DNA of 14,990 nt from IMG/VR virus record IMGVR_UViG_2660238423_000033; one strand, given 5' to 3'. A program made the position numbers and the translations under genes. Shown one piece after another: positions 1 to 14,990 of this stretch. The stretch is from a virus (taxonomy: Duplodnaviria; Heunggongvirae; Uroviricota; Caudoviricetes). A model generated the notes under the pieces. It was given only the letters and a program-made list of their open reading frames with translations. It did not search any database and was not told the origin of the DNA. The stretch's first letter is position 1. Every line of letters starts with the position of its first letter.

Positions 1-156
1 ATGGCAAAGCCGATCATCACGCTCAATGGCCTAAAAATCGTCATTATGTTGGGAATGCTGGTCATTATTCTCTGCGGTATCCGTTTTGCCGCCGAGATCA
101 TCGTGCCGTTTATTCTCGCATTATTTATTGCTGTTATATATAACTTATTTCGCATA
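1..156 (+). pseudogene. tqsA: 5' fragment of an AI-2E family transporter gene (TqsA/YdgG-like), interrupted after about 45 codons
   Basis: Translation [45 protein letters not shown] is a hydrophobic membrane-protein N-terminus that I recognise from memory as TqsA-like. From about nt 136 the frame diverges into AT-rich sequence (YNLFRITH) and stops at 154-156. Not in the ORF track because it is under 60 aa. Confidence 0.45.
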
Positions 157-862
157 ACACATTGATTTAATTAAATAATTAACACCGCAAAAGTGCCAAA
201 AATCGCAAAATGACTACACCAGTGACTACACCGTTCGGTGCACTGTATGAAACAACGTGGAACAAATAGACACAAGAAATATACAGGCGGATCATCTTTC
301 CAGGGGGAAGCACACCAATTCATGAGGGGCGTTAATGTCGATATGGGGATCCCCACCTACCGGAATTTTTTTCCGGTTAAACGTTAATCAGGCTGGTGGG
401 CTTTACCTGTTCGGTAGGTGTTATGATTATCGTAATACCTTTCCCCCAATGGGGTAAAAGCATCAACCGTAACGAAAGTCGTTATGGTTGCCACTGATAC
501 CCCAAATTTGGGTATCACGAGTAAGCCCCAAAATCTGGGTGTTACTCTTACTACCCAAACTACGGGTAGTTTCCGTAGTTTCATGGTCGAGTTGCAGATC
601 TGCAACTCCCCCATTAACCACAGGCGAATTTCCGCCTTCGGTCATTCCTTAATCATCTGCGTAATCATAATGATTATTCAGCAAGCGCAATTTTGCGCTT
701 TGCTTAAAGTTCAGCGAGTTACCGCGCCGACTTCCTCAAATTGAGGTTTCCGAAAATATCAGCGGGTTAGCGATTAAGCTGACCATTAATTAAACTGCGA
801 AAATGTCGTAGTTGTGAGGGGTGTAGCCAACCCATTTTTGGGCCGTCGGGAATATCAACCAG

Positions 863-1157: not shown

Positions 1158-2819
1158 TTACACCCCGCTAAATTCTTCCAGTTTCTGGCGGTGGCTGTCG
1201 CTTATATCAAAAGCAAAATCCTCATGCTCTGCCTGGAATGTACCAAACGCCATCAGCGCCGCTACGCTCGGGTCTATCTTGTTCGGTGATTTTTTCTTGT
1301 TCGGCTTGATATTGGCGTTCGCGTCACTCTGCATCACGACGTTACTCATCGACCAGGACAACACCGGATCGCCACGATGCACAATCACCCTGCGGTTAAC
1401 AAAAACTTCGAACGATTTCGCCGCCGGACTGAATCTGAGGTAGGTTTGCGGGAACGGCTCCACCTCAAAACCAGCCCCCTGTAATTGCGTCCTGAGATGC
1501 GTGGCGTTCCACGTATCAAAGCCCACCAGCCTGATATTAAATTTCTCCGCATCCTGCATGATGTCATCTCTGATCCGGTCGTAATCAATGCAGTCACCTG
1601 GCGTTGTGCGTATCCAGCCCGCTTTAGCCCACTGGCGATAGACAGCGCGGTTTTTATTGGCGGGGTTCTGTAGCTGGAACTCCGGCAGATAATGACGGGA
1701 AACCAGCATGATATTTTTACCGACCGGAAAGGCATAGCACACGCTGGAAATATCGCTGGTTGATGATAAGTCCAGCCCCGCGTAACACTCCTGCCCGTGT
1801 AAATCTTCCTCCGTGAACGTTCCGGCACACTCAGCCCATGCGCCGTTACCCATCCACGGGGTAGCCCCCTGGCACCAGATATTAAATCGCTTTGTCATCA
1901 TCTCCACCCACTGCGACGGAATACCCCGCGCTTTCTGGATGGTTGAGGCCAGTTTTTCACGATCGACGGAAACATCAATATTAGGGTTCGCCTTTATCCA
2001 CATCGCCGGATCATCAACCTCGTTTTCGTCGTCCAGCTCGTAAATCAGTACAAAAATTGAATCGTTAACCTCTTCGCCGTCCAGGATCTGGCAGCAATAA
2101 TCATAGTGCTGTTTACAGGCTGAAACGACGTTGCTGCCTGATGTGGTAATGGCAAATAACAGCCCTTCGGGACGTGCGCCCATCCCCAGCTCAAGCGCGG
2201 AATAAACGCCGTTATCGGGGTGCAAGTGGTATTCGTCCACGATGGAAAGGCTTGGGTTTGTTCCCTCGATGGTTGCCGCTTTTGCTGCCAGCGGCTTTAA
2301 CAGGCTGTTGCTTTTCGGGTGTATCACCTTATGCGCCTGAATATTCACCCGCCTGCGTAACGGTCGGGATAAAAGGCACATCTGACGCGCATCATCAAAG
2401 ACGATCCGCGCCTGGTCACGGCTCACCGCTGCGGTGTAGATATCCTGCTGACCGTTCTCCATAATCAGAAACCAGTTAGCCAGAATCGCGGCGGTCGTGG
2501 ATTTCGCATTTTTGCGCGGCACTTCGATAAAGGCGCTCGTGTATTTGCGCCGTCCGGTGGCCTTAACCTTAAAGCCGAGGATGCACGCAAAGGCGAACTG
2601 CTGCCACGGCTCCAGCTCAATGGGTCTGCCACGCATCGGTCCTTTTACGTGCGGGCACACCCTGGAAAAGGCAATAAACCGCTCCACAACCTCACGATCG
2701 AACGTGTAAAGGGGGCTTTTAAGGTCCGAAAAGTACCGTTTAACGGCCTGTTTCAGCCGTTTACAGGCCGGAATTTTGCCCGTTTTTACGTCTTCTGCGT
2801 ACTTATTCCAGGCGGTCAA
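1158..2819 (-). CDS. terL: terminase large subunit (ATPase/nuclease)
   Basis: 553 aa with a characteristic TerL N-terminus (WNKYAEDVKTGKIPACKRLKQAVKRYFSDL) and typical length. The start codon is TTG at 2819 with AGAGGA 6 nt upstream; it overlaps the terS 3' end by 17 nt. Confidence 0.9.
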   Translation of the reverse strand: MTAWNKYAEDVKTGKIPACKRLKQAVKRYFSDLKSPLYTFDREVVERFIAFSRVCPHVKGPMRGRPIELEPWQQFAFACILGFKVKATGRRKYTSAFIEVPRKNAKSTTAAILANWFLIMENGQQDIYTAAVSRDQARIVFDDARQMCLLSRPLRRRVNIQAHKVIHPKSNSLLKPLAAKAATIEGTNPSLSIVDEYHLHPDNGVYSALELGMGARPEGLLFAITTSGSNVVSACKQHYDYCCQILDGEEVNDSIFVLIYELDDENEVDDPAMWIKANPNIDVSVDREKLASTIQKARGIPSQWVEMMTKRFNIWCQGATPWMGNGAWAECAGTFTEEDLHGQECYAGLDLSSTSDISSVCYAFPVGKNIMLVSRHYLPEFQLQNPANKNRAVYRQWAKAGWIRTTPGDCIDYDRIRDDIMQDAEKFNIRLVGFDTWNATHLRTQLQGAGFEVEPFPQTYLRFSPAAKSFEVFVNRRVIVHRGDPVLSWSMSNVVMQSDANANIKPNKKKSPNKIDPSVAALMAFGTFQAEHEDFAFDISDSHRQKLEEFSGV

Positions 2820-6340: not shown

Positions 6341-7498
6341 TTAATCGTCGTCCTGTGGCAGTTCCAGAATCTTGATCGCGTTCGAATCCACCACGCCACC
6401 GCCTAAATATTTCTGCGTGAAAATTTTGATGAAGCCCGGCTCTGTGAGGTTGTCCGGTCTGGTGCGAACACCTGTTTCGTGATCAACAATGTAGTAACCG
6501 CGTTTGAAGTCACCCAGGGCAATAACGTTATCAGGCATAAACTCCAGATATTCGACCGGAAGGCCCAGCAACGTATCAGGATCACCCGCCTGTAAACGGT
6601 CGCGCCAGATGTAATCACCGTTCGCGTTCTTCACCTTCTGAAGTTTTGCCGCCGTCGTGGAGTTAACCACCCAGACCGCGTTTTTGCGGTATTTTTTACG
6701 TAATGCAAATTTCAGGTCGATCAGCGGGTCCGCAGATGTCCACGCCAGAGATTCGGAAGGTTTAATTACCTGCAACGTACCAAAATCACGCTCTTTGTCG
6801 TTCTTCTCTGCACGGGGTACGGATAAAAAACCTTTTGCTTTTTTGTCACCGTCGCCCACAACCAGATCGCTTTCTTCGGTTTCCGTGAAGGTGTCGCCAA
6901 TCTCACCCGTCAGCCATGAAAGGATGTCCACATCGGAAAAATCCACGATTTCCTGTGTGGTGCGCGGGTACGCATAGACCGGATACAGCTTAATGCTCAC
7001 CTCGTTAATCTGCGGGGTGCTGGTCTGTTCGCGTGCCTTACCCTCTTCACCGTGGTTAACGGTCGCACCGCCAGCGGAAACAAGCTGCTTAAACTCGTTG
7101 CTGCTGATTTTCTTCACGGTACAGATGCGGCGCATGGTGGATTCATCCGCCAGCATTCGCATGATTTCGGTGTTCAGCTCGGGGATAACGGTATAACCAC
7201 CATCAGCGGGAACGCCTGTACTTAATGCGCGGGTTTCACCTGTCAGGATGTAGTTGCGTAGTTCTGCGGGGTCAGTGGTCTGACTGCTTTTACCTGGCTT
7301 GCTGCGCTCTTCGTCTGCAATGGCTTCAAGGCGGGAAATGTCTTTATCGAGGGATTCAGCTTTAGTGCGTAATTCGTCAAATTTTGCGCCCTCAGCATCG
7401 TTAAGACTGCGGTTTTCTTTTTCCGCGTTCTCCAGCATGTCGCGCATCTGATTTTTAATGGCGGTTTTCTGCTGGCGTAATTCGATTATTCTCGGCAT
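6341..7498 (-). CDS. major capsid protein, HK97 fold, with N-terminal coiled-coil (delta/scaffold-like) region
   Basis: 385 aa; N-terminal about 90 residues are charged and heptad-like (IIELRQQKTAIKNQMRDMLENAEKENRSL...ISRLEAIADEE), as in HK97 delta domains. Position next to the protease and portal supports the call. ATG at 7498. Confidence 0.8.
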   Translation of the reverse strand: MPRIIELRQQKTAIKNQMRDMLENAEKENRSLNDAEGAKFDELRTKAESLDKDISRLEAIADEERSKPGKSSQTTDPAELRNYILTGETRALSTGVPADGGYTVIPELNTEIMRMLADESTMRRICTVKKISSNEFKQLVSAGGATVNHGEEGKAREQTSTPQINEVSIKLYPVYAYPRTTQEIVDFSDVDILSWLTGEIGDTFTETEESDLVVGDGDKKAKGFLSVPRAEKNDKERDFGTLQVIKPSESLAWTSADPLIDLKFALRKKYRKNAVWVVNSTTAAKLQKVKNANGDYIWRDRLQAGDPDTLLGLPVEYLEFMPDNVIALGDFKRGYYIVDHETGVRTRPDNLTEPGFIKIFTQKYLGGGVVDSNAIKILELPQDDD

Positions 7499-7534
7499 AA
7501 AAAAAGTCCTGGGGTTAAGTAAGGAACTCCAGGA
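7499..7534 (-). promoter_or_regulatory. stem-loop plus U6 abutting the capsid start codon; it contains the only Shine-Dalgarno candidate
   Basis: Minus-strand RNA gtcctggaguu-ccuuacuu-aaccccaggac-UUUUUU-AUG: an 11 bp stem with one mismatch and an 8 nt loop, then six U and the capsid ATG. The AGGA in the 3' arm is 7 nt from the ATG. Confidence 0.4.
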
Positions 7535-7708
7535 CGCGGCAAAAACTCAACCGTTTTTCATAAGGAAATCAGCAATCGCACCGATCGTTTTCCCGCCTGG
7601 TAATGAATATTGGCGAGAACATTAACAGGCGGAAAAGTGGCCCCAGCGTCCTGGCACCACGGGCGAGAATAATCATGATTCAGTTCGGGTAAAATATGCC
7701 GATCCGCT

Positions 7709-7738
7709 CAGTGAACAACGTGGAACAACCACGAACAA
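7709..7738 (+). repeat. three GAACAA hexamers phased at exactly 10 bp (candidate regulator binding array)
   Basis: cagtGAACAAcgtgGAACAAccacGAACAAataa, with hexamers at 7713, 7723 and 7733. The same architecture occurs at 246-275 and, on the other strand, at 13681-13730. Confidence 0.45.
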
Positions 7739-7754
7739 ATAATTTACAAAAAAT

Positions 7755-7780
7755 GACAAAAAGCCGGATTTCTCCGGCTG
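7755..7780 (-). terminator. rho-independent terminator after the 74 aa gene
   Basis: Minus-strand RNA gccgga-GAAA-uccggc followed by uuuuugucauuuuuu; lies 12 nt after the stop at 7790. Confidence 0.6.
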
Positions 7781-7789
7781 TATGGGTGC

Positions 7790-8013
7790 TCAGTCCCTGA
7801 TCCCTTTCAGAAATTCTATCAATGCATCTATCTGTTCAGGATTTACCGCCAGCATTTCACCGGATAGAGCACATCTCACAAAACCATGCTGATCCTTTTC
7901 AATCAGTGCGCCCGTCTCCAGGAATGCGCGGTAATCATTGATGCTCATCGTCTCCATGTTGTCAGCATGGTATTTATCACGCTGTTTTAATATCTCATCA
8001 AATTTCATCGGCA
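7790..8013 (-). CDS. hypothetical protein (74 aa from the ATG at 8013; ORF track extends to 8092)
   Basis: MPMKFDEILKQRDKYHADNMETMSINDYRAFLETGALIEK...; GAGGA lies 7 nt upstream of the ATG at 8013. Flanked by terminators on both sides, so it is a stand-alone transcription unit. No family recognised. Confidence 0.5.
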
Positions 8014-8107
8014 TTGTTTTTTCCTCTGTTGTGTCTGTTTGTTTCAGATAGTAACTATGCCTGACCGTGACGAAAACCCGGTAATGCACCATACCGTTTC
8101 AACTGGT

Positions 8108-8134
8108 GCAAAAAAAGCCGGATTTCTCCGGCTG
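8108..8134 (-). terminator. rho-independent terminator after the perC-like gene
   Basis: Same 24 nt sequence as the terminator at 7755-7780 (aaaaagccggatttctccggctgt on the plus strand); the minus-strand hairpin is followed by U7. Confidence 0.65.
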
Positions 8135-9149: not shown

Positions 9150-9385
9150 TCCCCTTGTCTACCTTATCTACCTTAGTGGCCCTCATACCAGTAATGGCGC
9201 GGCTTTCAGCTGGGTAGAGTGCTTTTATCCACTATCTACCCCGTGTCTACCTCCCTGTCTGATTCAGGTAAAATCAGGTAGAGAGGGTAGATAGTGGGTA
9301 GACAGTAAAAAAAGGCTATCTACCTAACTTAATGCACTGAATTAAATGTATTTTTCTTTACTCAGGTAGACAGGGTAGACAGCAA
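9150..9385. repeat. replication origin: iteron array (GGTAGACA and variants, both orientations) around an AT-rich core
   Basis: At least 11 copies of GGTAGA(C/T/G)A or its complement TGTCTACC/TATCTACC (for example 9156, 9166, 9233, 9244, 9278, 9287, 9298, 9317, 9366, 9375), with an AT-rich stretch at 9330-9360. Begins 14 bp after the pri-rep stop. Confidence 0.65.
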
Positions 9386-9395
9386 TTACAAAAAA

Positions 9396-11150
9396 TTATA
9401 AAAACGCGTCGCACTCGTCTGTTGTTATTGCGTTAGTCTGCGTTACTCCCTTAACTTTCCGCGTAATATATTCATGTCCGTAAACTTTCGCGGCTGGCTT
9501 CATAGCCTTGCCAAAGTCATTTACGTTTAGCGGTTTGCTCCTGCCTGCGTACGCCATAAACGCCAGATAGACGCGGTAAAGGCTGTTTCTGGTCGTGTAC
9601 TTCACTGAATCGCCACCGCCGCCCATCATCAGGCCGCGTGCTTCCTCCAGAAAATTCAGGAACTGGCAAAACTCAATAACCGGATCCGTCTGTTGCTTTA
9701 TTGCCAGAGCTTCATCACCGTCACGCTGTTCCAGTAGTAAAGCCCGTGCCTTCTCAGGGTCGGTAAAGTTCGCCAGCAATCGGCGGATAATGACAGGGAT
9801 TTCAGCCGCGATCTTTTCCGGTAGCTCCCTGTCTTTTTCGGCCTCACTGACGATATTGTCGAAACGGAAAATCACGCGACGACGTGCCACACCTCCGGCC
9901 CGTTCGGTGAATATCATCGGGTTATTGTTGGTCGCCAGCACCACCGCCCTGATTACAGCCGTGAAACGCTTTTCGTATTTCGGGTTAATTTCCACGGGGT
10001 CACCGCCCGTGATTTTCTTGATGCCCGTTCCTTCGCCTGTATATTTCGGCTGGTCAGCCAGGACGATAAGACGACTCCCGACAACCTGCGCACGTCCACC
10101 AGCATCATCAAGCGATGTCATTTCAGCGCTTACCGTGTTCTGTTTCCCTGCCAGAAGGCTGGCTATGTGCGTGAATGTACTTTTACCGCTCCCGCCGTCT
10201 CCGGTGGCCTCAATAAACATCTGCCAGTCGTACCGGTTCGCCATAATCATGTACAGCGCGGCACATATACGCATCATCTTGCGCGGGTCTTTTCCGGCTG
10301 CGTGCTCAAGCCATTTATGAAAGTTTGGCGCGTTATCGCGGATGTTCTCCCCTGGTGCTGGTGGCGTGTACTCAATGCCGTTGTGCGTGGTGATCCAGTT
10401 CTCCGGCGTGTGCGGGGAAAATTCCCCCGTTTTCAGGTCAAGCGCACCATTGGCGAACGGCAGCAAATCGCCGGACGGCTCGCCCATTGGTTCGGCAATA
10501 ACTTTTAACGCTTCCACGGCGTTATTGATTACGCGCTTGCTGAAAGTGGCCCTGTGCTCTGAATAGATCGCCACCATTTCGCGGCTAAGTTCCATTGTGC
10601 TGACCGGACACCATACCCCGCCGCGCCATACGTGAACGATTTCACTTTCAGGATGTACGCAAACGCCATCAAAGCGATCGGCAAGCAGCTGCGCGCGCTC
10701 ACTGTCCGCCATCTGCGAAAGTTGCGCCTTTTGCTTTACCGGAAGCTCAATGACCAGACCATCAGAAAGATTCTGGCGCTCACGAGCCAGATATTCGCGC
10801 CAGTTCTCCACCTTCTGACCGTGCATACCATCAGGGTAAAAATTTGCATCCTGTACGCCTGCCGCCGCCAGCTTCTGACCAATCGCCTTTATCATTACTG
10901 GCGCAAGATATCCGGCCCTGAATATGCGCACGGATTTTCTGCCTTCCGGCACAATTTGCAGCTTATCCAGTTCGGATAACTGCTGCTCCCCAAGCCACAC
11001 AGGAGGCTCATTATCTCCGGCCATACGCGCGTCATGTTCCTGCCATTGTTTTGCGTGTGACCAGGCATCACTACCCGCAAAAATAATGACTTCAGTTTCT
11101 TTGTGTTTTATGCCGCGTGACTGCTGTTTTACGTTCGGTGCCAGTTTCAT
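9396..11150 (-). CDS. primase/replication initiator (Pri-Rep), P4-alpha/D5-like with a Walker A NTPase
   Basis: 584 aa; Walker A motif ATGDGGSGKST mid-protein, with the N-terminal half consistent with a primase region. ATG at 11150 has AGGGG upstream and overlaps the upstream stop. Confidence 0.85.
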   Translation of the reverse strand: MKLAPNVKQQSRGIKHKETEVIIFAGSDAWSHAKQWQEHDARMAGDNEPPVWLGEQQLSELDKLQIVPEGRKSVRIFRAGYLAPVMIKAIGQKLAAAGVQDANFYPDGMHGQKVENWREYLARERQNLSDGLVIELPVKQKAQLSQMADSERAQLLADRFDGVCVHPESEIVHVWRGGVWCPVSTMELSREMVAIYSEHRATFSKRVINNAVEALKVIAEPMGEPSGDLLPFANGALDLKTGEFSPHTPENWITTHNGIEYTPPAPGENIRDNAPNFHKWLEHAAGKDPRKMMRICAALYMIMANRYDWQMFIEATGDGGSGKSTFTHIASLLAGKQNTVSAEMTSLDDAGGRAQVVGSRLIVLADQPKYTGEGTGIKKITGGDPVEINPKYEKRFTAVIRAVVLATNNNPMIFTERAGGVARRRVIFRFDNIVSEAEKDRELPEKIAAEIPVIIRRLLANFTDPEKARALLLEQRDGDEALAIKQQTDPVIEFCQFLNFLEEARGLMMGGGGDSVKYTTRNSLYRVYLAFMAYAGRSKPLNVNDFGKAMKPAAKVYGHEYITRKVKGVTQTNAITTDECDAFL

Positions 11151-11911: not shown

Positions 11912-12143
11912 AACCACCCCCATTTTCACAATCAGCAATCAGGATGGCTTTAGCCTCATTCAGCGCCATATCAGCACTAAGTTGCATAACCGCCAGCGAA
12001 TGAGGAACGAAAGCCCCGGCATATTCTGTTTCACTGGTGTCGTGCTTATGCGCCCTGTCAGCAATAACAGAAATATCAATCAGCGCATGCATTAGCGTTA
12101 TGATGGCTTCGGCGGCTGCGTCCGGACGGGTGTTATTGCACAT
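11904..12143 (-). CDS. hypothetical protein (79 aa)
   Basis: Strong AGGAGGT 6 nt upstream of the ATG at 12143. No family recognised. Confidence 0.55.
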   Translation of the reverse strand: MCNNTRPDAAAEAIITLMHALIDISVIADRAHKHDTSETEYAGAFVPHSLAVMQLSADMALNEAKAILIADCENGGGYA

Positions 12144-12339
12144 GGCACACCTCCTGACGAATACGGGCAGCGAATACCATCACGCAGCCAGCCGGAGATT
12201 GCTGGCGTGCTTCCTGTTCGCTGGTGGCCTCAATGGTAATCACGCGCGGTTGTGCCGTGCTCAGGGCGATAAAACGCCAGATGTATTTATTCAGGTTGTG
12301 CGAGTCCCGCCCTTGCGGGTGTATGGTATGATTTCTCAT
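12133..12339 (-). CDS. hypothetical protein (68 aa), first gene of the leftward operon
   Basis: Internal ATG at 12339 of the 339-codon track ORF, with GAGG 5 nt upstream. Only this C-terminal part has a ribosome-binding site; the remainder of the long ORF is rejected. Confidence 0.4.
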   Translation of the reverse strand: MRNHTIHPQGRDSHNLNKYIWRFIALSTAQPRVITIEATSEQEARQQSPAGCVMVFAARIRQEVCHVQ

Positions 12340-12529
12340 AGCTACCTCGATACTTTCGCTATCGTTGGTGGTTAGACGCCCTGCATGTGTGCCACCACTG
12401 CGGGGCGTTGTTGTTTGGTGCATCGCACCATTCGTTTTTAACCTATCAGTAAGTGAATCGCACTTCAAGTCTTTCTCTGAAATTTTTTTTGTGTATACTG
12501 AATCGCACCAACTTAGAGAGGATTCAGTA
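12340..12529. promoter_or_regulatory. divergent promoter/operator region between the leftward operon and the plus-strand RHH gene
   Basis: Plus-strand candidate -10 TATACT at 12494-12499 with a TG just upstream. Direct repeats TGAATCGCAC at 12454-12463 and 12499-12508, plus a related CATCGCACC at 12421-12429. Confidence 0.4.
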
Positions 12530-12709
12530 ATGGCAACAGGTTCAACAAATAATAAGTCGCAACAGTTAAATGCCAGATTCCCGCATGATGTTGTTGCAGA
12601 CTTAGAAAAAAATTTAGATGAAGGTGAAAGCAAGGCGCAATTTATAGTTACTGCCGTTAAAGGTGAGATCAAACGCCGCCAGCGTCGCAAGGCCAAAGAG
12701 CAGGAGTAA
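12530..12709 (+). CDS. ribbon-helix-helix (Arc/Mnt-like) DNA-binding protein, 59 aa
   Basis: QQLNARFPHDVVADLEKNLDEGESKAQFIVTAVKGEIKRR aligns by eye with the Arc repressor strand-helix-helix (QFNLRWPREVLDLVRKVAEENGRSVNSEIYQRVMESF). GAGAGGA precedes the ATG at 12530. Confidence 0.5.
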   Translation: MATGSTNNKSQQLNARFPHDVVADLEKNLDEGESKAQFIVTAVKGEIKRRQRRKAKEQE

Positions 12710-12766
12710 CCATCACCAGCGCCGTGGTGTGAGTAACTACGGCGCATTGCTATGCAGGACAACACA

Positions 12767-12940
12767 ATGACCGATAAAGAATTGACCAAAACATTATCAC
12801 CGGCACGGAAAAGACGGCGCAGAAAGATAGAACATGAATCAGAAAGATTCGCGCCATGTGCTTTTGCCCTTGAGCAATTCCTTAAAGAGTACAGGGAAAA
12901 GCGCTCATTGCAGGTATGGCAACGAACTGAACCAGACTGA
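12767..12940 (+). CDS. hypothetical small basic protein (57 aa from the ATG at 12767)
   Basis: MTDKELTKTLSPARKRRRRKIEHESERFAPCAFALEQFLKEY; AGGA 7 nt upstream. Co-oriented with the RHH gene and upstream of the plus-strand terminator. Weak call. Confidence 0.3.
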   Translation: MTDKELTKTLSPARKRRRRKIEHESERFAPCAFALEQFLKEYREKRSLQVWQRTEPD

Positions 12941-13035
12941 TTGCATTGCCCACCAGCCTGATAGCGGCTATCATCCCCGTGCTTATGTTTGGGATCACAC
13001 ACACAAACGGCGCAGCGGGTTATCTGTTCAGAAAG

Positions 13036-13063
13036 GCGGCTCCATTTCGGGGCCGCTTTTTTT
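13036..13063 (+). terminator. rho-independent terminator ending the plus-strand cassette
   Basis: gcggctcc-atttc-ggggccgc, an 8 bp stem with one G-U pair, followed by T7 (13057-13063). Confidence 0.6.
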
Positions 13064-13209
13064 ATGCCTGAAAAACCCCAATTTTGTGGTTTTCCAGTCT
13101 CACCAGGGCGAACGAATCCCCGCCCACGTTCTGGCGTATATTCAATCTTCATGGTTATAGCTCTGTGTTCAGATGATTGATGTGTGGCGGCTGTGTGCCG
13201 CCAGCGTGA

Positions 13210-13398
13210 TTAATGAACTGCCTTGCAGCTATCCTTCCAGGCCAGAACCTCGGATAAAGACCAGCCAACGGAACGACCGCCAAGTTTACGACGTGATGGG
13301 AATTGTCCGGCCTTTTCCAGGCGGTAGCGGCATGAGCGGCTAAGGCCTGTTAGCTTTTCGCATTCTTTTTCACGTATAAACCGATCAGTGCTTAACAC
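13210..13398 (-). CDS. alpA: AlpA-family transcriptional regulator / excisionase-like protein
   Basis: 62 aa; EKECEKLTGLSRSCRYRLEKAGQFPSRRKLGGRSVGWSLSEVLAW matches the AlpA family. The start is GTG at 13398 with AGGGGG 6 nt upstream. A hairpin without a U-tract (tggcggc-tgtgt-gccgcca, 13185-13203) lies 7 nt downstream. Confidence 0.85.
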   Translation of the reverse strand: MLSTDRFIREKECEKLTGLSRSCRYRLEKAGQFPSRRKLGGRSVGWSLSEVLAWKDSCKAVH

Positions 13399-13680
13399 TA
13401 TTGCCCCCTTTCGTTTCTTAAAGAGTTATTTCGTGTTCTATTGCGTTGGGATGTGTCTGATTGTGTCAGGATGATTCAGAGTTGGCAAATGTTGAGGTCG
13501 TATGGTTTACAGAAACAGGAATAATCAGGATAAAATCATTTAAATTCATGTTAATACAAAGGCATAAAATATTGTTTCATGCCTTTTTTCTCGCCATTTA
13601 AAGAGTGATTCGCTAGTGTATAAAAAACCAGTAACACATTAAAAATCAGCCACTTATAAATCCGTACACTTTTTCGCCTC

Positions 13681-13730
13681 TTGTTCGTAGTTGTTCCGCA
13701 TTGTTGCTCATTGTTGCATGTTGTATCTGT
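13681..13730 (-). repeat. five 10-bp-phased (G/C)AACAA-type repeats upstream of alpA
   Basis: Plus strand reads ttgttcgtag ttgttccgca ttgttgctca ttgttgcatg ttgtatctgt, five consecutive 10-mers each starting TTGT(T/A); on the minus strand these are ...GAACAA, GAACAA, CAACAA, CAACAA, ATACAA. Same motif family as 7709-7738 and 246-275. Confidence 0.5.
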
Positions 13731-13740
13731 TCGCATATCC

Positions 13741-13756
13741 AGTATGCGCATACTGA
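13741..13756. promoter_or_regulatory. perfect 16 bp palindrome CAGTATGCGCATACTG between the int stop and the phased repeats
   Basis: cagtatgc/gcatactg is exactly self-complementary. No U-tract follows on either strand, so it looks like a dimeric protein-binding site rather than a terminator. Confidence 0.4.
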
Positions 13757-13772
13757 AAAAACACGAAAAAAA

Positions 13773-14990
13773 TTATTTTCTTCTGGCTACTGGTAGCGTG
13801 GTTACGTTTTCATGTGTTCCCGCCAGTATCCCTAACCGCTCCGTCCACATATCCAGCGCATTGCGTTTAGCATCCAGATAACGGGAATGATTATAAACTC
13901 GCTGCATTCCTGGCATCTGATGACCTGTAAGCTGCTCCACGACATGCGGATCAACGCCTAAATCGTTCAGCATGGTTGTAAAGGTGCGCCGGATGTCATG
14001 CAGTGACCAGTGAGGATGATTAAGCCTCCTGTGCGCTAATCTTCCATACTGCGATACGCTGGCCTCCTGTTTCGCTTCCCCCAGCAATAAGCCCGTGTGC
14101 CTGTTCTGCTCCACCAGCTGCGTGACGAACGGCAGGATCGCTTCCGGTATGGGCCGGAATATTGCGACCTTCGTTTTGCTGTGCTCCTTCGGAACGGTCC
14201 ATAGCATTTCCGTAAAATCCCACTCCCCGATCTCCGATAGCCTCAGTTCTACCGTCCTGGCTCCGAAGACAATCAGGAGGCGGATTAACGCGACGTAGTA
14301 AGGGGAAAATATTTTTTTGTCCAGTGCCTGCAATAATTCGCCAAGTTCTTTGTTACTTAAGACACGTTCGCTTATATCCGGTTTTTTCCCAACGTCCGCC
14401 ACGTTCAGATCGTCCAGAACGTTGCTGATTGCATAGCGCCGCCTACGGCAGAACTTAAGCGCCTGTTTGCACGCCTGTAGCACGAATCCGGCAGTAACAG
14501 GCGTTCGCTTTGCCACCTGGTCAAAACAGGCCAGCCAGTGCCGTAGCTCGCATTTATCCAGCGGCATAGCACCAATCTGCTGTATTACGTGATTATTAAG
14601 TCGCCTTTTCAGGGCGATATAATCCACGCGGTTTTCCTTTACGTAATACTCAAGCCAGTAGGTGAGCGCATCGCCAACCGTTACGGGCTTTAACGCTTCC
14701 TGTACGGTGTAATTCATCTCATGACGTGGATTTTTCCCCTCAGCCAGCCATGTGCGACACTGTGCGGCTTTTTCCCTGGCTGCTTTCAGGCTCAGATCAG
14801 GATAACTTCCCAGCTTAATGCGTTCGGGTCGTGTCTCCCTTCCCGTTCCGGCCCTGTATGTGAAATACCAGGTCAATTTCCCTGATGTTAAATATTTCAC
14901 GCTCAGGTTTCCGCCATCACTATAAAACGTGTTTTTCTCCGCTGGCTTACCATGAAGTTTCCTTAGCAAGGTATCGCTCAGTTTGTTCAT
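13773..14990 (-). CDS. int: tyrosine site-specific integrase, P4 family
   Basis: 405 aa; N-terminal arm-binding domain (FYSDGGNLSVKYLTSGKLTWYFTYRAGTGRETRPERIKLGSYPDLSLKAAREKA) and a C-terminal catalytic region (HDIRRTFTT, LTGHQMPGMQRVYNHSRY carrying the catalytic Tyr). The ATG is the last three bases of the window. Confidence 0.95.
   Translation of the reverse strand: MNKLSDTLLRKLHGKPAEKNTFYSDGGNLSVKYLTSGKLTWYFTYRAGTGRETRPERIKLGSYPDLSLKAAREKAAQCRTWLAEGKNPRHEMNYTVQEALKPVTVGDALTYWLEYYVKENRVDYIALKRRLNNHVIQQIGAMPLDKCELRHWLACFDQVAKRTPVTAGFVLQACKQALKFCRRRRYAISNVLDDLNVADVGKKPDISERVLSNKELGELLQALDKKIFSPYYVALIRLLIVFGARTVELRLSEIGEWDFTEMLWTVPKEHSKTKVAIFRPIPEAILPFVTQLVEQNRHTGLLLGEAKQEASVSQYGRLAHRRLNHPHWSLHDIRRTFTTMLNDLGVDPHVVEQLTGHQMPGMQRVYNHSRYLDAKRNALDMWTERLGILAGTHENVTTLPVARRK

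Follow-up and report, generated by a model that had tools for sequence, protein, structure and literature searches.

Phased repeat arrays at the attachment arms, alpA and the capsid operon of a capsid-forming phage-inducible chromosomal island are candidate operators for AlpA

The island and its gene content

We analyzed 14,990 nucleotides (nt) of the IMG/VR virus record IMGVR_UViG_2660238423_000033, hereafter the window, which is an approximately 15 kb satellite of the capsid-forming phage-inducible chromosomal island type (cf-PICI, a kind of PICI) inserted in tqsA. The island carries arrays of short direct repeats at exactly 10 bp spacing in its attachment (att) arms, next to the regulatory gene alpA and ahead of its capsid operon. 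These arrays are non-random, hold their positions among relatives and change in motif together with the island's winged helix-turn-helix (wHTH) and integrase (Int) module. Judging from these sequence patterns, the arrays are probably operators for AlpA, which would serve as a recombination directionality factor (RDF) at the arms and would regulate transcription at both alpA and the capsid operon.

A near-identical record, NZ_AP027170 (L001; its coordinates are those of the window plus 2500), was the source of the annotation by the Prokaryotic Genome Annotation Pipeline (PGAP) and of the right flank. The 9-mer att core TGCTGTTAT found at the left junction recurs at L001 17688-17696, adjoining the rest of tqsA, and the island measures about 15.06 kb from core to core. 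According to the open reading frames (ORFs) and the PGAP annotation, the int, alpA, primase, ssb, perC and capsid/packaging genes all lie on the minus strand, in the order int, alpA, small genes and primase (9396-11150), ssb, perC, a small ORF, and the capsid/packaging operon. The main landmarks are as follows:

129-137, strand not assigned: att core TGCTGTTAT at the left (int-distal) junction, inside the 5' part of tqsA
1158-2819, minus strand: large terminase subunit gene (TerL), from ORFs and PGAP annotation
6341-7498, minus strand: major capsid protein (MCP) gene, first in the capsid/packaging operon, from ORFs and PGAP annotation of the near-identical record
13210-13398, minus strand: alpA, encoding a 62-aa winged-helix protein (PF05930 Phage_AlpA, E 5e-18), the proposed array binder
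13773-14990, minus strand: int, a P4-type tyrosine integrase with Pfam Arm-DNA-bind_3 and Phage_integrase domains, from annotation; the annotated start lies 22 nt past the window end

In the HK97-type operon, MCP is followed by protease, portal, closure, connector, HNH, small terminase subunit (TerS) and TerL. The island thus combines int, alpA and primase with HK97-type MCP, protease, portal, connectors, HNH, TerS and TerL, has neither tail nor lysis genes and falls in the size class of about 10-15 kb; such gene content defines a capsid-forming PICI (10.1101/2022.09.08.507074).

Phased arrays are non-random and confined to the island

Three regular arrays and a degenerate one lie within the window:

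250-275, plus strand: array A, AAACAA-cgtg-GAACAA-atag-ACACAA, 10-bp phase, in the int-distal arm 17 nt from a tandem doublet; proposed AlpA (RDF) sites
7713-7760, plus strand: array B, GAACAA-cgtg-GAACAA-ccac-GAACAA plus weaker TTACAA and TGACAA; the three strong units span 7713-7738
13681-13726, minus strand: array C, ATACAA/CAACAA/CAACAA/GAACAA/GAACAA, read from 13726 to 13681, 10-bp phase; proposed AlpA autoregulatory operator
13467 to 13431, minus strand: array D, degenerate, GACACAA/GACACAT/AACGCAA/AACACGA, phased, over the predicted alpA promoter

Arrays A, B and C are all in non-coding DNA. A further regular array of four units lies 77-112 nt past the right end of the window, upstream of int, in the int-proximal arm. 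A preliminary description of this DNA, made from its letters alone, had given the sequences of A and B as we find them and placed their starts four nucleotides too far left (246 and 7709 instead of 250 and 7713). The three hexamers at 10-bp spacing that it reported on the plus strand at both sites are present, as is the opposite orientation of the array upstream of alpA, which runs from 13726 to 13681 on the minus strand.

The exact 15-mer reported as common to A and B, AACAACGTGGAACAA, occurs at 251-265 and 7714-7728, on the plus strand only. Its chance expectation had been put at roughly 0.1, in line with our finding that some repeated 15-mer arises in 14% of dinucleotide-preserving shuffles of the window; the shared 15-mer alone is therefore weak evidence. 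The phasing is far more discriminating. If a run is counted wherever three or more ACAA cores follow one another at exactly 10 bp, the window has three runs and the whole island four. The 1000 dinucleotide-preserving shuffles averaged 0.001 runs, with never more than one in a shuffle. Moreover, the 129,474 bp of flanking non-island E. coli DNA, a lambdoid prophage included, contains none. The view that the common phased architecture is no coincidence is thereby upheld, including in the unrelated genome sequence against which it was to be checked.

Across 83 units from 21 distinct arrays, the unit consensus is w-S-G-A-A-C-A-A-n-n, with information in the S-G-A that precedes ACAA and a nearly random 3-nt spacer. 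For RDF binding, at least three direct repeats are needed, arranged in tandem at a distance of one turn and occupied head-to-tail (PMC7498355); the island has three to six direct repeats at exactly 10 bp at four sites. Two other explanations of the array sequences were rejected. An ORF at 13551-13751, in which the array would be encoded as protein, is broken by an 11-nt indel in the related islands L015 and L016, and a hairpin within array B, GTGG-TTGTT-CCAC, is not kept in L015.

In the att arms the arrays adjoin putative integrase sites

The left end, which the preliminary description counted among three regulatory positions, is an att recombination arm and not a promoter-type site, and its twin on the other arm had been missed. 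The twin copies form a 76-nt direct repeat, a module of doublet plus phased RAACAA array that is present in the int-distal arm and, outside the window, upstream of int. Each copy contains the doublet GTGACTACACC-a-GTGACTACACC, and the int-proximal copy has four array units. In the window the doublet reads:

210-232, plus strand: doublet of tandem repeats, ATGACTACACC-a-GTGACTACACC, at a 12-bp period, in which Int probably has its arm-type sites on the int-distal arm

The int-distal arm is ordered core, 72 nt, doublet, 17 nt, array, and the int-proximal arm core, 85 nt, array, 7 nt, doublet, int. The int-proximal array thus sits between core and doublet, directly upstream of int, and the arrays lie 7 nt (proximal) and 17 nt (distal) from the GTGACTACACC doublets, in the location where RDF arrays are found.

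The island shares the features of P4 attP: tandem arm repeats flank the core on either side in one orientation, and int is adjacent. Because P4 attP has this layout, we read the doublets as the likely Int arm-type sites and the arrays as sites of a second protein. The doublet is kept in the arms in L014-L017, L140 and IMG/VR relatives, and the motif is not present at the internal array sites of the window-family islands compared. The doublet motif also differs where Int differs. In L038, whose Int arm domain is 47% identical, it is TGTGTATTGCA x2, while three TTGTTC units and an AlpA-like protein with the recognition helix GLSRSrR are kept despite the diverged Int. L038 (IMGVR_UViG_2778261094_000010), which has a tandem pair of AlpA-like genes and is inserted directly beside a terminase-like gene, may be a satellite embedded in a helper, as described in PMC10111431.

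These observations bear on the alternative in which the arrays themselves are arm-type sites of the Int N-terminal domain, like lambda P'1-P'2-P'3, with Int also occupying the internal sites. Int does have an Arm-DNA-bind_3 domain, arm-type sites are tandem direct repeats in both arms, the presence of arrays in both arms is unusual for RDF sites, and Int and array motif change jointly in L004 and L005. We nevertheless judge this reading improbable. An unrelated 12-bp repeat, twice GTGACTACACC in the window, already holds the position and layout of the P4 attP arm repeats, and a P4-like doublet layout recurs in every lineage examined (the window family, L004/L005, L006 and P4). This doublet is confined to the arms, and in L038 it changes with the diverged Int while the threefold TTGTTC stays. 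There is further no known reason for Int to bind upstream of the capsid operon or alpA, and the alpA promoter PalpA of the island EcCICFT073, where the array motif alone is present, is activated by AlpA and not by Int (PMC6092414). Of the two candidate binders named earlier, AlpA and the arm-binding domain of Int, AlpA is accordingly the one we favor, the GTGACTACACC doublet being, from its sequence and position, the better candidate for the Int arm-type site.

AlpA and the region upstream of its gene

The predicted structure of AlpA (pLDDT 87) has as its best match in the PDB the GIsul2 excisionase 8C3T (TM 0.79/0.86), with further matches to RdfS and TorI. Its identity is 47% with P4 Vis and 95% with the AlpA of EcCICFT073. 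The element therefore encodes, in AlpA, the small winged-helix protein of excisionase fold that is expected as the cognate binder of an RDF array.

In EcCICFT073, AlpA is needed for induction, activates its own promoter PalpA, is needed for excision and replication and, with Int, suffices for both (PMC6092414). Induction of cf-PICIs likewise requires alpA (10.1101/2022.09.08.507074). Between int and alpA, EcCICFT073 has a 6-unit array and lacks the doublet motif. Our search of the accessible literature for defined PICI AlpA sites found none.

Array C follows closely on the int stop codon and precedes alpA by about 280 nt. Closer to the gene, the sequence hints at a promoter overlapped by array D:

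13431-13488, minus strand: predicted alpA promoter, -35 TTGCCA at 13483-13488 and -10 CACAAT at 13460-13465; array D overlaps

The spacing between the two hexamers is held across a 10-nt indel in L014 and L015, where the -10 reads AACAAT. Both the promoter and the overlapping array are put forward tentatively. 

Two further structures were noted in this region. A terminator-like hairpin, GGCATGAAA-caata-TTTTATGCC (13560-13600, minus strand), lies between array C and alpA and is held in L015 through compensatory changes (GCGTAAAA...TTTTACGC). A perfect 16-bp palindrome, CAGTATGCGCATACTG (13740-13755), directly follows the int stop codon beside array C; it is found in L002 and L014 and absent in L015 and L016.

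Array B and the capsid operon

Array B lies between a terminator at 7762-7779 and the capsid operon, 214 nt ahead of the MCP start codon, and reads TTGTTC in the direction of transcription. Its sequence and position lead us to propose it as an AlpA operator of the capsid/packaging operon. It is preceded by a conserved block:

7739-7751, minus strand: TTTTGTAAATTAT, adjoining array B on its upstream side with respect to transcription, occurring once in the window

All cf-PICI lineages examined have the TTTTGTAAATTAT block, irrespective of their array motif. Within it is TAAATT, a -10-like hexamer, with no -35 conserved ahead of it. By analogy with the AlpA systems studied genetically, AlpA might act as an activator at array B. 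Hand-picked -10 candidates downstream, TATTTT 16 nt after array B and TATTCT/TATATC about 40 nt after it, are not consistently conserved.

The 5' leader of the capsid operon (7499-7712, minus strand) has an unusually strong predicted fold (-73 kcal/mol, z -3.7). A hairpin at 7637-7660, GTGGTGCCAG-GACG-CTGGGGCCAC, shows compensatory changes relative to L003-L005 and L015 (GTGGCACTCA-GACG-TGAGCCGCCAC), and the MCP ribosome-binding site is buried by a terminator-like hairpin (7506-7535) that has a T7 run after it (7499-7505). Farther upstream, identical intrinsic-terminator hairpins AGCCGGAGAAATCCGGCT at 7762-7779 and 8116-8133 (minus strand) flank a small ORF at 7790-8014.

A variant of our reading accepts AlpA as the array binder and denies it the role of a classical activator at the internal sites. 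Array B would then act as a repressor site or roadblock, or in relief of termination within the strongly folded leader, and array C would regulate int instead of alpA, for example by forming a loop with the proximal-arm array or from an antisense promoter. The -10-like hexamer just upstream of array B, the terminator-like hairpins and strong fold of the leader, and the way in which array C and the proximal-arm array point at int from both sides would all fit. The known dual RDFs (Apl, Cox, TorI, Vis), moreover, mostly repress (PMC7498355, PMC2951348). Against this stand the genetic evidence that AlpA activates PICI genes and its own promoter (PMC6092414), the need for AlpA in cf-PICI induction (10.1101/2022.09.08.507074) and the absence of a conserved -35 ahead of TAAATT. 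On balance we consider this variant unlikely, if the most serious of those weighed here.

Array positions are conserved among relatives

The arrays recur at equivalent positions in related islands at four other chromosomal sites, as the preliminary description had asked of homologous elements. Arm modules together with array C are found in the phoQ-roxA islands L014, L016 and EcCICFT073 (L140), in the yifB island L015 and in the Shigella genome L002; the clpS-cspD island L017 has the arm modules only. The att cores vary among these window-family islands and the arms stay alike. Array A is identical in L014, L015, L016 and L140, and takes the form CGAACAA x3-4 in L017. The array C region of L015, L016, EcCICFT073 and IMG/VR relatives comprises five to six units with constant ACAA cores and variable spacers, and its alignment shows cores retained while spacers drift. 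Array B is kept in L002, L015, L016, L038, L081, L101, L111, L113 and L115; it was found wherever the HK97-type capsid module was found (L002, L015, L016 and several IMG/VR contigs). An IMG/VR scan for GAACAA-N4-GAACAA-N4-RAACAA was used solely to collect relatives and carries no weight as an enrichment test; 15 of its 120 matches had an AlpA-like gene, a count that comes without a base rate.

Conserved cores and drifting spacers also bear on the suggestion that the arrays are iterons bound by the primase or a Rep protein, as in P4 ori/crr, or non-functional duplications. P4 does have 10-11-bp phased iterons near vis and near attP, and TGTTC is common to the arrays and the P4-type iteron TGTTCACC. 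The island, however, has an iteron field of its own, TCTACC(C/T) in both orientations, in the canonical position directly behind the primase gene (9150-9390), which is the probable replication origin, and TGTTCACC is not enriched in the window. Furthermore, L015 has TGTTCACC iterons and L014 a RepA helicase, and the AACAA arrays are unchanged in both. The conservation of cores but not spacers across lineages speaks against neutral duplication. With a separate iteron field, and arrays that stay the same where Rep differs, the analogy with Rep iterons and P4 ori/crr was rejected and we regard this explanation as remote. The relatives' iterons differ among themselves, with TGTTCACC in L015 and TATTCAC in L006.

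The array motif is exchanged together with the wHTH and integrase module

The more distant cf-PICIs L003-L005 (MCP 66-74% identical), integrated at a tRNA gene, have a different Arm-DNA-bind_3 integrase and, in place of AlpA, a wHTH protein of the HTH_17 family. Both of their arms contain a tandem doublet, GGTATCCTA x2, beside two or three phased ATACYY units; AAGTACTT repeats lie upstream of the wHTH gene; and three GTACCC/TTACCC units follow the conserved TTTTGTAAATTAT, exactly at the position of array B. Overall, the array motif changes with the wHTH/Int module while the architecture (both arms, regulator gene and capsid operon) is kept. In 31 distinct IMG/VR arm contexts of this TACYY lineage, TAC is found at -22 in 90% and at -12 in 97%, with the rest variable. 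The positional agreement of TACYY units across contexts is strong. Three to four TACYY arrays were observed against 0.01-0.03 expected from shuffles, a significance that is overstated by the post hoc choice of the motif. The Gilliamella element L006 has 12-bp doublets in both arms and was dropped from the reading of arrays as too AT-rich and too diverged.

The exchange bears on the alternative of a different binder, such as a host factor of the OmpR/PhoB/ArcA type that recognizes direct repeats, a helper-phage protein, or another conserved island protein, for example DUF4222 or the Icd-like protein. Direct repeats phased at 10-11 bp are targets of response regulators as well; no island with AACAA arrays lacks DUF4222 or the Icd-like protein; and the route by which a helper phage induces the island is unknown (PMC6092414). 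In L003-L005, though, the motif follows the island's own wHTH/Int module in related enterobacterial hosts, and because of this a conserved host factor is unlikely. Neither DUF4222 nor the Icd-like protein has a predicted DNA-binding domain, and the arrays adjoin the putative Int sites in the att arms, where RDFs act. Any such binder therefore seems to us decidedly improbable. PerC, YlcI/YnfO and the product of the ORF at 7790 (hyp7790) were rejected as binders, each being missing from some array-bearing island. 

A model for AlpA as a shared switch

The earlier proposal of one set of sites for a single island protein thus finds comparative evidence in its favor, both in the conserved positions and in the exchange of motif in a lineage with another wHTH protein. 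The sites that Apl, Cox and Vis bind at promoters are of the kind that they bind at att (PMC7498355). Similarly, the unit consensus of the arm arrays is found again in arrays B (7713-7760) and C (13681-13726), and L004 and L005 have the same repeats at att and away from it, with their other motif.

We infer that AlpA binds the arrays, bends the arms and activates at array B. AlpA monomers would line up head-to-tail, one per helical turn, on three to six adjoining units. At both arms such a filament would bend the DNA and help Int build the excisive complex, making AlpA the recombination directionality factor. A helper phage would induce AlpA first; AlpA on array C, and perhaps D, would feed back on its own expression, and AlpA on array B would turn on the capsid/packaging and terminase genes, an operon otherwise isolated behind the terminator at 7762-7779. 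One protein might thereby couple excision with capsid production.

Several observations weigh against this model. Concerning array B, a sigma-70 promoter scan at the array and capsid operon found no promoter, and the classical PICIs L014, L140 and L017, with other capsid-like genes, have no array before those genes. Near alpA, array C lies about 190 nt upstream of the predicted promoter with the terminator-like hairpin between, and the degenerate array D over the -10 would suggest repression. Orientation is also inconsistent, as B reads TTGTTC towards its operon and C and D read AACAA towards alpA. In EcCICFT073, Pint activity is unchanged by AlpA although an array lies directly upstream of int (PMC6092414), and in Vibrio PICMIs, minimalist chromosomal islands that phages induce, AlpA seemed to act on excision and not on transcription (PMC10803314). 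Finally, the TACYY pattern was defined after the sequences had been seen, and Int and wHTH were swapped together with the motif, such that covariation alone cannot separate the two proteins.

A broader reading, which we hold tentatively and at slightly less than even confidence, is that the cf-PICI excisionase doubles as a late-gene switch, with one AlpA filament operator serving both att arms and also turning on the capsid/terminase operon, and that this operator is a cassette open to exchange, set at a constant distance behind TTTTGTAAATTAT. On this account, unrelated wHTH lineages (AlpA or HTH_17) carry three phased units of their own there, TTGTTC or TTACCC, and the shared capsid module would be rewired to whichever excision module joins it by recombination. 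The in-register exchange of motifs between lineages itself amounts to a natural specificity-swap experiment.

AlpA is the master switch of Gram-negative PICIs and cf-PICIs, and the accessible papers are split between AlpA as activator and AlpA as excisionase, with no DNA target defined. If our reading is correct, a 10-bp-phased S-G-A-A-C-A-A operator at the arms, alpA and the capsid operon would reconcile both views and would account for the coupling of excision and capsid production to induction by a helper. It would also supply a testable cis-element and a sequence signature with which to annotate the att arms and regulons of satellites.

Further features of the island

The island splits tqsA, which encodes an autoinducer-2 (AI-2) transporter, into window 1-165 and L001 17689-18594. 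The 5' fragment runs out into island sequence and the remainder is annotated as a pseudogene without its N-terminus, for which reason tqsA appears to be inactivated by the insertion. A 339-aa ORF at 12133-13152 (minus strand) looks spurious or decayed, RefSeq having a partial pseudogene there; opposite to it, a 59-aa YlcI/YnfO-family gene (12540-12719, plus strand) is the sole plus-strand gene of the island.

A 570-bp non-coding stretch (290-860) separates the last gene from the att arm and is rich in inverted repeats, for example 498-530/536-568 and 450-475/479-504. This stretch has no Rfam match and may be a cos/packaging site; Rfam and tRNA scans of the whole window likewise found nothing. 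At the packaging end of L015 (2672-2717) and L017 (7063-7098), four to five phased TGTCAC units with an 11-bp period adjoin the homologue of ORF 863-1144; these units, which the window lacks, may be bound by terminase.

Comparison with known systems

A close parallel outside the PICIs is bacteriophage P4. Its Vis protein, the 47% identical homologue of AlpA, is both an excisionase and a transcription regulator. In P4 attP, as in the island, the core is flanked on either side by arm repeats, annotated as such in P4, which are 12-bp tandem doublets of like orientation; in P4 the int-proximal doublet has three phased TCCG units beside it. P4 differs in its units, TTCCG/GTCCG as opposed to TTGTTC here, and in having no capsid operon, its late genes being under Delta.

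Apl of phage 186 and Cox of P2 bind direct repeats spaced 10-11 bp (five in att, seven in pR-pL), require at least three adjacent operators and use one protein for excision and transcription control (PMC7498355). Unlike AlpA, which is genetically an activator, they repress early promoters; they also belong to an unrelated sequence family and have no link to structural-gene operons. TorI of KplE1/HK620, which acts with IntS, shares the winged-helix excisionase fold and matches the AlpA model. Its sites I3-I5, GTTCG/GATCG/GTCCG, lie at a 10-bp period in an att arm over PintS (PMC2951348), and their cores resemble the TTGTTCG units of the island. TorI differs in that it represses intS and that its sites are known only in attL/attR, with no internal promoter sites known.

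The P. aeruginosa AlpA resembles the island protein only in its name and in the terminator-like hairpins downstream of its DNA element. It is larger, has a 21Q-like fold with DNA-contacting residues R128-H142, and acts on a single GGGACG element (the AlpA-binding element, or ABE, hexamer) between -35 and -10 (PMC9371919). The marks of a Q-like AlpA antiterminator (a 21Q-like protein, an ABE hexamer and a sigma-dependent pause) do not apply to the island AlpA, and Q-type antitermination was rejected as a mechanism, given a Q-like protein unrelated to the 62-aa PF05930 wHTH protein and its single GGGACG element.

Finally, the AlpA of the E. coli islands EcCICFT073 (PICI) and EcCIEDL933 (cf-PICI) is essentially the same protein as that of the island (95% identical in EcCICFT073), and EcCICFT073 shares array C and both arm modules. 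For these islands the cis-elements are the new part, as binding sites are not defined in the accessible papers. Overall, the system is of a kind already known, a Vis/Apl/Cox/TorI-type RDF with phased operators that also lie at promoters. Relative to the accessible literature, what is new is the candidate PICI AlpA operator itself, its presence in both arms, its apparent use before a capsid operon and the in-register exchange of its motif.

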